From: a bacterium
Lineage (GTDB): Bacteria > DUMJ01
DNA: 50,860 nt
Assembly: GCA_049970495.1 (NCBI GenBank)
Contig: JBMFMV010000006.1
Span: 1-50,860 of the forward strand
Direction: 5' to 3'
Shown here one piece after another: positions 33,001-36,000 of the stretch; the first letter of the stretch is position 1, and every line of letters starts with the position of its first letter. The position numbers were made by a program.

Positions 33001-36000
33001 TATAGAGACCTTAAAAGGAAATGGGCCTCAAGACTTAGAAGAATTGGCTATTGAGGTTGTAGGAACTATAGCCTCGAAAGATTTGGCAAAAGAGGTCTTA
33101 AAAAATGGTAAGGCTTTTGATAAATTCAATGAGATGGTGAGGGCTCAAGGTGGCGATATTAGTAAACTTACCCCTTTAGCTAGAATATACGATTTTTCGG
33201 TTTCGGATGCTGGTTATATAGAGCGCCTAGACGCCTATCTTATAGGAGAAGCGGTTAGAGCTCTAGGAGCCGGAAGGTATAAAAAAGAAGATATTATAGA
33301 CCCTAATGTGGGAATAGTGCTTAAGAAAAAGATTGGAGATTATGTAAACAAGGGAGAAACTATACTAGAGATATACTATAACGATGATGAAAAATTAAAA
33401 GATAGCATAGAGCTTATAAAGAAGGCGGTATCTATAAGTCAAAATGAGGTTAGAAGACCTACTCTCATCTATTCTGTCTATTCATGACGTAGACTTATGT
33501 TTGGAAAACGCCCATAAGAGAGATATTCCTATCTATCTTGTAGGCGGAACTCTCAGAGATATACTTCTTGGTTTAAAGATAAAAGACATAGATTTAGTAG
33601 TAGAGACCTCAGTGGATAGATTTCTAGAATATATCGAAAGCCTCAATAAAAAAGGAAGGCTGCTTAAGAGGTTTTATACTTTCAAGTTTTCTGTGAGTCA
33701 TAAAGATATAGAACATATCGATATAGCGATTGCAAGAAAAGAGGTCTATCCTAAGCCTGGAGCATTACCTTTAGTAGAACCCGGAAAAATTAAAGAAGAC
33801 CTATATAGGAGAGATTTTACTATAAATGCCTTAGCTATTCCTATTTATTCAAATAAAAAGATAGGTGAGATTCTAGACCCTTTAGGAGGAACAAGAGACC
33901 TAGAGAACAGAATAATAAGAGTCCTCCACGATAAAAGTTTTATAGATGACCCTACTCGTATCTTCAGGGCAGTAAGATTTAGTGTAAGGCTTGGTTTTAC
34001 TATAGAACCATATACGTATAGCCTTATGGAGAATGCAGTGAAATATGGAGCCTTAAGGACTGTTGGTATAGCTAGAATTAGAAAAGAGATTGAATTATGT
34101 AGAAGAGAAGAAAGGTATAGAGAAATCTTTGATGTCCTTAAGGCTCTCAACGTTCCATTAGAAGAATTTATAGAACTTGGAAATTAAACCTCTTTTCTGT
34201 ACCCCTATTACCTTCATTGTCTACTGGATACACCGAGACCATATACGTTCCTGGAGGCGCTCCATAAGGAACTTGCATAGAAAGTTTGAATTGATCTCCT
34301 TCCTTCTGGAACTGAATCATGTAACCATATTCAGGTATTCTTCCATAGACAGCCTTGGTATCTGGAGATGCCTTGACAATAACTGTTACCATATCTCCCT
34401 GTCTTCCAGAAGTGGGATTTACATCTAAACTTAGTATTTCTGCCATAATCTTACCTCCTCCCAACAGGTATTTTTCTATATTCAATATTATCATCTCAAG
34501 ATTTCCCTGTCAAATAGCTGTTTGTTCAATCTGTATAATAATGCTCTGGGTTAAAATCTTTCCACTATGATTAATAATTATTGTAACGTTGTATGTTCCA
34601 ACCCCTAAAGTTCCAGTAAGGTTATCATAATCTGCTTTATATATGGAGTCTTCTAGTAATTCTATAGGGATAGATATTGAAGGGGTAATTTGGACTATAC
34701 TATTAGCTAATTCGCTGCTAGATAGAGGTTCTTGGATCTTTATTTTTATTCTAAAGCTTGTATTTTGAGGAATTTTATAGGTCAATCCTATAGGAATCAC
34801 CTGCTCTTCAAAGGGTTCATTATCAGTAGTATCTCTATCTATCCATACTTCAACCTTTTCTATAAAGGGTTTACTACAATTACATCCATTAACTCCAGCG
34901 ATAATAAATATAGAAAGTATTGATACTACAACCTTTAGTATACTAAAAAATCCTCTATGATTTTTCACTTAAGTCCCTCCTATTTTAGTTTTAACTAAGA
35001 GCCTTTTTACAAGCCTTTATTCTAGATTCAATCTCTTCATCTTTCCAGTCGGGATTAATTGATATAAAGACAGTCCTGCTAAGGATATCTAATGTTTTAG
35101 GACACATATCTTTTGAGTAATTTATCCTAAGATCCCTATTCTCTGGAAATTCAAAGGGGTTCATTCTTGGGTGATGGCCAACTCTATGTTCTAAGATTGG
35201 CTCCCAATTAGAATATACATGCTTACCTGTATCTATAGGTAACCATCCTTTAACTTCTTCCTTCTGAGCAAATCCTCTAGCTTCTTTCTCCGATTCAAAC
35301 TGAATACCTACTACTACCCCACAGTCCCCTTCCGGGTCATTAGCTGGAACAAGCTTTACCCCTGTAGTTTTTAGTTCATCTATAAAAATTCTTTTGATAC
35401 GCCTTAGGTCTGCAAGTATACCATCTAATCTTCTAAGCTGAACACGTAATATTGCCCCCATAATTTCATTAGCTCTTAATTGAAGCCCTATAAATATTGG
35501 TATATTAACCTCTTTAGGGGATGGGCTAAGAAAGACAAACCCACTATCATGATAAACTAAGACTCTCTCATAGACTAATCTGTCATCTGTTACTATACAT
35601 CCACCTTCTCCACAGCTTATTATCTTATAGTAGTTAAAGCTAAATACTCCAACATCACCTAGACTTCCTAATCGCTTTCCTTTATAACTTCCACCCACTG
35701 CTTGACAGGCATCTTCTATCACTTTTATCTTATACCTCTTTGCTATTTCTATTATCCTGTCCATATTAGCCGGAAGTCCTTGCATATGAACCGGTATAAC
35801 AGCTTTAGTATTTGGGGTAATCTTTCTTTCTAAGTCTTCTGGATCTAATGTCAGACTTTCATCTATCTCTGCTATAACTGGGATGGCTCCGGCATTTAAG
35901 ACCGCAGATGCTGTAGCAATAAAGGTATAACCAGGGACAATAACCTCATCTCCAGGACCTATACCAAGTCCAATTAAGCCACTTGCTAGAGCAGATGTCC

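Follow-up and report, generated by a model that had tools for sequence, protein, structure and literature searches.

The gene at 33444..34187 of the window (the whole 50,860-nucleotide stretch of DNA that was analysed) encodes a class II tRNA nucleotidyltransferase that consists of the head and neck only, and we consider this mini enzyme likely to be a stand-alone A76 adder that does not build CC and has a repair role in the window's lineage. The enzyme would take hold of a tRNA that terminates in C74-C75 by its 3′ end and the upper part of its acceptor stem, select ATP via D169/R172 and the flexible loop, add a single AMP without CC synthesis and then release the tRNA. In the window's lineage it would restore A76 where a tRNA has lost it, and the minis of Omnitrophota would additionally finish tRNAs during maturation. 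The features of the locus are as follows.

31455..32246, plus strand: purine-nucleoside phosphorylase gene, which opens a three-gene run
32219..33487, plus strand: pyrimidine-nucleoside phosphorylase gene, whose last 44 bases are shared with the beginning of the nucleotidyltransferase gene in a conserved arrangement
33444..34187, plus strand: mini class II tRNA nucleotidyltransferase, head and neck only, 247 aa, ATG to TAA
33543..33593, plus strand: motif A, GGxxRD (residues 34-39), and catalytic D48 and D50
33648..33686, plus strand: basic beta-turn region KKGRLLKRFYTFK (69-81), candidate substitute grip on the tRNA 3′ end, a role proposed from its charge
33735..33797, plus strand: basic/acidic motif R98-x-E100 and the full-length flexible loop
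33807..33815, plus strand: motif B, RRD (122-124)
33945..33959, plus strand: motif D, DDPTR (168-172), the amino-acid template for ATP/CTP
34071..34088, plus strand: ARIRKE (210-215), the sRxxxE signature of A-adding enzymes, including K214
34168..34494, minus strand: convergent 108-aa gene with weak Ig-like matches, overlapping the nucleotidyltransferase stop by 20 bases

The first-pass annotation had described the gene as the only one of its kind in the genome, encoding a short protein that resembles A-adding enzymes, and these points were borne out. The reading frame is intact and ends at the neck-body junction; the genome has a single PF01743 match at E<=10, and each of the seven phylum genomes (completeness 94-99%) has one PolyA_pol match, in frames of 240-249 aa. 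PolyA_pol, at residues 30-159, is the only Pfam domain match of the 247-aa protein, and the ranking of A-adding enzymes as the nearest relatives was reproduced in PDB and NCBIfam searches. The AF2 model (pLDDT 93.4) shows the class II head-neck fold in Foldseek comparison and aligns with no more than the N-terminal half of the structures from A. aeolicus and T. maritima; the predicted model of an Omnitrophota form of 221 aa reached a pLDDT of 92.3. The reported absence of PolyA_pol_RNAbd stood only in part: the PF12627 profile did miss the 247-aa protein, yet at E<=0.1 it detects 42 of the 50 short homologs, so this region, the second half of the neck, is present though diverged. The body and tail are missing, the chain stopping 80 residues past DDP versus about 245-290 in full-length relatives, and there is no room for a remnant of them 3′ of the gene because the convergent gene overlaps its stop. 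A promoter and terminator scan gave fewer sites than in shuffles. Elsewhere in the window, an ORF at 41434-42198 resembles, as judged by eye, a CRISPR Cas6 endoribonuclease.

Motif comparison showed that the catalytic motifs are intact. The mini enzyme has the class II motifs A-E with their carboxylates, RRD and the (E/D)DxxR template. The third carboxylate, D93, lies beyond the motif A stretch; D48, D50 and D93 align with D55, D57 and D99 of the T. maritima enzyme, and D169 and R172 of DDPTR correspond to its D174 and R177 (numbering taken from the available part of PMC3925840). Motif A, the three carboxylates, R98-x-E100 with the full loop, RRD, DDPTR and R211/E215 are all invariant in 50 short homologs. 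Addition of A76 requires the basic/acidic motif and a full-length flexible loop, as described in the accessible sections of PMC2910056 and PMC3925840, and the mini enzyme has both; the loop deletion that PMC2910056 gives, in its available text, as the hallmark of CC-adding enzymes was not found. The same text names sRxxxExxxhh as a criterion for A-adding enzymes that is also common to poly(A) polymerases (PAPs). A or S precedes R211 in 29/29 clade sequences, so that position 210 never has the E of the ERxxxE of canonical CCA-adding enzymes; a loose ERxxxE pattern matched one of 20 clade proteins, elsewhere in the region. Other marks of the A-adding family are absent: the protein scores 164.6 bits against a cut-off of 1440 for the NCBIfam equivalog NF041569, no CC-adding partner enzyme was found in 7/7 phylum genomes, and the C-terminal region that excludes tRNA without CC is missing from the chain. 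By analogy, the mini enzyme would work like an A-adding enzyme, yet it has neither the body and tail nor the partner of that family.

The tRNA genes of the window's lineage point to repair. As had been claimed, 39 of the 40 tRNA genes found by ARAGORN encode CCA. The 40th is a second Leu-TAA gene on an 882-bp contig (G000:C131:1-882), which has no close match in six relatives and is probably contamination; this contig also carries a zinc-ribbon-like ORF. The CCA ratio, defined as the number of CCA pattern matches per tRNA counted with Rfam, was 0.97-1.09 in the seven phylum genomes; it may exceed 1 because the pattern has chance matches (0-6 in controls) and the Rfam search scored part of the candidates. 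Since every tRNA gene in the lineage encodes CCA, the proposed job of the mini enzyme is repair, and since no CC-ending tRNA gene was found in the phylum among the matches listed, its assignment comes from homology and analogy rather than from a direct demand. Low-level repair of tRNA 3′ ends by other enzymes, such as PNPase, occurs in E. coli. Matches to the RNase PH domain in G000, G006 and G122 were to PNPase only (G000:C37, G122:C19), with no stand-alone RNase PH found, and PNPase could repair some tRNA ends in these genomes.

To relate enzyme sets to tRNA gene ends, 80 genomes drawn from 150 of 384 rows plus additional searches were grouped by enzyme set, leaving out four rows that were seemingly cut by contig ends or of another type; the genomes are metagenome-assembled genomes (MAGs) and related, and thus not independent. 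Among the matches listed, the CCA ratio was at least 0.84 in all 26 genomes that have a mini only, and below 0.6 in six of nine with a mini plus a second enzyme, in 13/16 with two long enzymes (the second was read only in G026) and in 10/15 with a single canonical CCA-type enzyme. A single 870-900-aa form went with a ratio of at least 0.8 in 13/14 genomes, again among the matches listed. In these Omnitrophota genomes with one full-length A-type enzyme (G043, G104, G079 and others), CCA is thus fully encoded in 13/14, so that the association between a lost CC-adding gene and encoded CCA extends further than the minis.

In all nine Omnitrophota genomes that pair a mini with a second enzyme, the loop of the latter is shortened or missing, and there the mini does have the CC-adding partner expected of an A-adding enzyme. 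Gene-by-gene reading of two such genomes found CCA encoded in 7/44 (G174) and 15/44 (G014) tRNA genes, the remainder all without CC; five genes unplaced by the script were assigned by eye. No class I enzyme was found in five mini-plus-CC-type Omnitrophota genomes. Because most of their tRNA genes lack CCA, the cells of G174 and G014 depend on an enzyme that adds A, for which no candidate other than the mini was found.

The mini-only genomes gave a complementary picture. We fetched 24 CCA-pattern-negative tRNA genes from G122, G031 and G263 (one weak Rfam match was left out), and 22 of them end in CC followed by G; the other two are a CCA-ending gene with an odd T-loop and a second-copy tRNA-Leu(TAA) of G122 without CC. 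Similar CC-G ends were recognised by eye, among the matches listed, in G007, G008, G010, G069, G098, G162, G179 and G250, and a pattern search of those genomes showed no CC-pyrimidine ends. At G122:C17:27482-27638 (L170), tRNA-Cys-CC abuts tRNA-Leu with no spacer, its position 76 G being G1 of tRNA-Leu, so processing must leave tRNA-Cys-CC; the abutment at G007:C26:30141-30297 is identical. RNA runs screened for A76 at a CC-G locus contained at most 0.20 of the words, and only conserved tRNA parts of other organisms. An enzyme match was present in 29 of the 38 genomes of the G122 family, every one short, and no CC-adding enzyme was found among the 38; the sole extra protein lacks RRD and DDxxR. 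This protein (L270, G268:C26:8547-8891) is a divergent class II-like nucleotidyltransferase in a 356-aa frame, beside a glycosyltransferase-like gene. Ending tRNA genes in CC-G appears to be a family trait. In the mini-only genomes CC must therefore be encoded whereas the gene may omit A76, which fits an enzyme that adds A76 and not CC.

Hairpin repeats were also observed downstream of many tRNA genes in this Omnitrophota family (L170, L171-L174, L176-L187; G122, G031, G263), with C75-G76 often opening the stem and a short conserved tail after the repeat. Twelve of the 22 position-76 G's open such a hairpin together with C75, and an insertion preference of the repeat may contribute to the retention of CC.

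Because the enzyme set tracks the tRNA gene ends in Omnitrophota, the most likely activity of the minis is addition of A76 to tRNA-CC without synthesis of CC, and the analogy suggests that the catalytic half by itself still adds the final A. The first-pass annotation had predicted restoration of the terminal A or of CCA; the former is the better supported by the Omnitrophota comparison. The latter is disfavoured because 0/26 mini-only genomes have a ratio below 0.84 and because the exceptions in the three genomes inspected keep CC.

Among the alternatives, the one that survives best, although we regard it as unlikely, is that loss of the C-terminal ruler unlocked C addition and made the mini a minimal repair enzyme for full CCA (or CA). 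In the part of PMC7014341 available, the C-terminal part of A-adding enzymes is presented as the constraint that keeps tRNA without CC from the active site. On that view a mini could be capable of adding C, but the genomes give no sign of it. The CTP-capable DDxxR template is intact, and a T. maritima member of the subfamily adds the full CCA (PMC3925840, available part). A long form may do something similar: G160, a single 1.43-Mb contig whose sole enzyme is an 868-aa DHH-CBS relative, encodes CCA in 19/39 tRNA genes, and its 20 non-CCA genes (L271-L288, L120) have C74 alone in 18 cases and CC in one, hinting that the enzyme adds C75 and A76 but not C74, or that the assembly is without a gene. 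The tRNA ends of G160 mean that the subfamily is probably able to add C in some lineages, like the T. maritima enzyme. Encoded CC is, however, widely shed in none of the 26 mini-only genomes, whereas the ratio is below 0.6 in ten of the 15 that have one canonical CCA-type enzyme alone (among the matches listed), and nine genomes retain a CC-adding enzyme alongside the mini, although such ratios are blind to weak C-adding repair.

How A76 addition could proceed without body and tail bears on a second, improbable alternative, namely that the mini works only with a tRNA-holding partner, whether an RNA-binding protein that is encoded separately or is unrelated, or a second mini copy. In every class II structure solved, body and tail grasp the T-arm and elbow, whereas the 3′ end is wrapped and the acceptor stem contacted by head and neck (PMC12166844 and bioRxiv 10.64898/2026.03.02.709036, in the sections available), and in Omnitrophota rbfA and a gene for a DHH phosphoesterase follow closely behind the minis. 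That context is, however, shared by a full-length relative (G026) and missing from the window. The tRNA-binding partner that had been left open found no support, as neither a body-tail homolog nor a class I enzyme was detected in the genome or its relatives: two body-tail profiles run against the whole genome gave best E values of 1.3 and 0.15, the second being of modest sensitivity since it recovers distant Acidobacteriota tails at E 1e-6 to 0.16; PF13735 was absent from 5/5 phylum genomes searched, and PF09249, for the class I enzyme, from five phylum and five Omnitrophota genomes. A split gene was rejected on the same profiles and PF13735, the DHH match of the N-terminal profile being a stand-alone 325-aa protein. 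Repeated independent truncation would also be easier without need for a partner.

For a stand-alone A76 adder, the replacement grip may lie within the protein. The net charge of residues 69-81 is +5.6 in 29 clade members, compared with +1.7 for the 198 long enzymes and +1.6 for the remaining minis, and K occupies position 214 in 29/29 clade sequences, 19/22 other minis and 10/198 long enzymes (33 more have R), many of these sequences being kin. The basic beta-turn and the convergent lysine K214 may replace the lost body-tail contacts; a basic beta-turn replaces the C-terminal tRNA contact in the R. culicivorax enzyme according to the available text of PMC7730189 (also PMC12013499). General charge compensation was rejected, as the net charge of the clade core, -2 to +7, is inside the range of the long forms, which leaves the local effect at the beta-turn. 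Because A is added in one step with no need for translocation, the enzyme may manage with a loose grip.

It is highly improbable that the mini no longer serves tRNA and instead tails other RNAs in the manner of a small poly(A) polymerase. It is without the tRNA-holding domains, the KRF turn of the clade resembles the G-[RK]-[RK]-F stretch within the PAP signature, and PAPs share sRxxxE; but the PAP I signature [LIV][LIV]G[RK][RK]Fx[LIV]h[HQL][LIV] was found in 0/20 clade proteins, tree and fold group the mini with tRNA enzymes, and a tailing role would leave G174- and G122-type genomes without an A76 enzyme. That the mini is a vestige or an assembly artefact is scarcely credible, even though encoded CCA makes such an enzyme dispensable in principle and the source genome is a MAG of 143 contigs, because length (seven genomes and the 20 protein clusters of the clade, 236-248 aa), gene order (in four relatives the phosphorylases overlap the start and the convergent gene the stop) and dN/dS (0.10-0.19 against six relatives, similar to the phosphorylases) are all conserved.

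Phylogenetic analysis further supports that the truncation is recurrent. Short forms outside the phylum, noted before and seen again here, are 221-280 aa long and common in Omnitrophota, upstream of rbfA. In an unrooted tree built on 44 core sequences selected from 105 rows, the short label requires six changes, at least three of them forced by starred branches, and a single origin of the minis is rejected, as 0% of bootstrap trees give one. Similar minis thus appear from the sequences to have arisen at least three times, mostly in Omnitrophota. Full-length enzymes of Acidobacteriota are the sister group of the window's clade (support 99/97), which would have been truncated separately from the Omnitrophota minis; loss is a simpler reading than gain of body and tail because long forms are the rule. 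One Syntrophales genome (G016, L099) has a short A-type enzyme in a 300-aa frame beside a loop-less HD enzyme of 544 aa; the shortening here may be recent or one more independent event.

In the literature searched (main texts, with few subscription papers), we found no report of truncated, minimal or body-and-tail-less enzymes or of the Omnitrophota forms, and the mini would be the smallest tRNA nucleotidyltransferase that we could find. According to structural work, class II enzymes cannot hold tRNA without body and tail, and it is the C-terminus that limits A-adding enzymes to A. A natural A76-only enzyme of 221-247 aa, if true, would separate the tRNA-holding role from the A-restricting role, and natural pairs of mini and full-length sister are ready for a direct test of the two. 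It would also serve to model the ancestral core and as a compact tool for RNA 3′ labelling, and tRNA genes that end in CC followed by G allow an enzyme's activity to be read from the genome without culturing. The widest reading has about an even chance: head and neck would form a complete, self-sufficient tRNA-maturing enzyme, repeatedly evolved and in some lineages essential, which is A-specific without a C-terminal ruler and grips through the basic beta-turn and the neck lysine, with one Omnitrophota family running on CC-encoding, A-less tRNA genes.

Among known systems, the A-adding enzyme with a DHH/CBS N-terminus is the best match of the mini in sequence and fold (E 2e-46, 37% in the fold alignment). 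It shares the loop type and sRxxxE and its reaction is predicted to be identical, but the mini lacks the DHH/CBS N-terminus, the body, the elbow-reading tail and a CC-adding partner in the phylum. The T. maritima CCA-adding enzyme (PDB 3h37-3h3a, 5hc9) is of the same subfamily, with the same DDPTR template and likewise no ER, and differs in its four domains, full CCA addition and less similar loop sequence. In T. maritima, too, the enzyme is the sole one in the genome and nearly all tRNA genes encode CCA. The full-length Acidobacteriota enzymes of 400 aa (P0042, P0088, P0104), which form the sister group, differ in keeping body and tail and in having ERxxxE. Bacterial poly(A) polymerase I has the class II head and neck and sRxxxE in common with the mini, but it is a far weaker match (E 4e-15), and its signature is missing from the clade. 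In Romanomermis culicivorax's CCA-adding enzyme, a basic beta-turn compensates for an unavailable C-terminal tRNA contact; there, as the available part of PMC7730189 describes, the tRNA is armless and the enzyme full-length, whereas here the enzyme is halved and the tRNAs are canonical.
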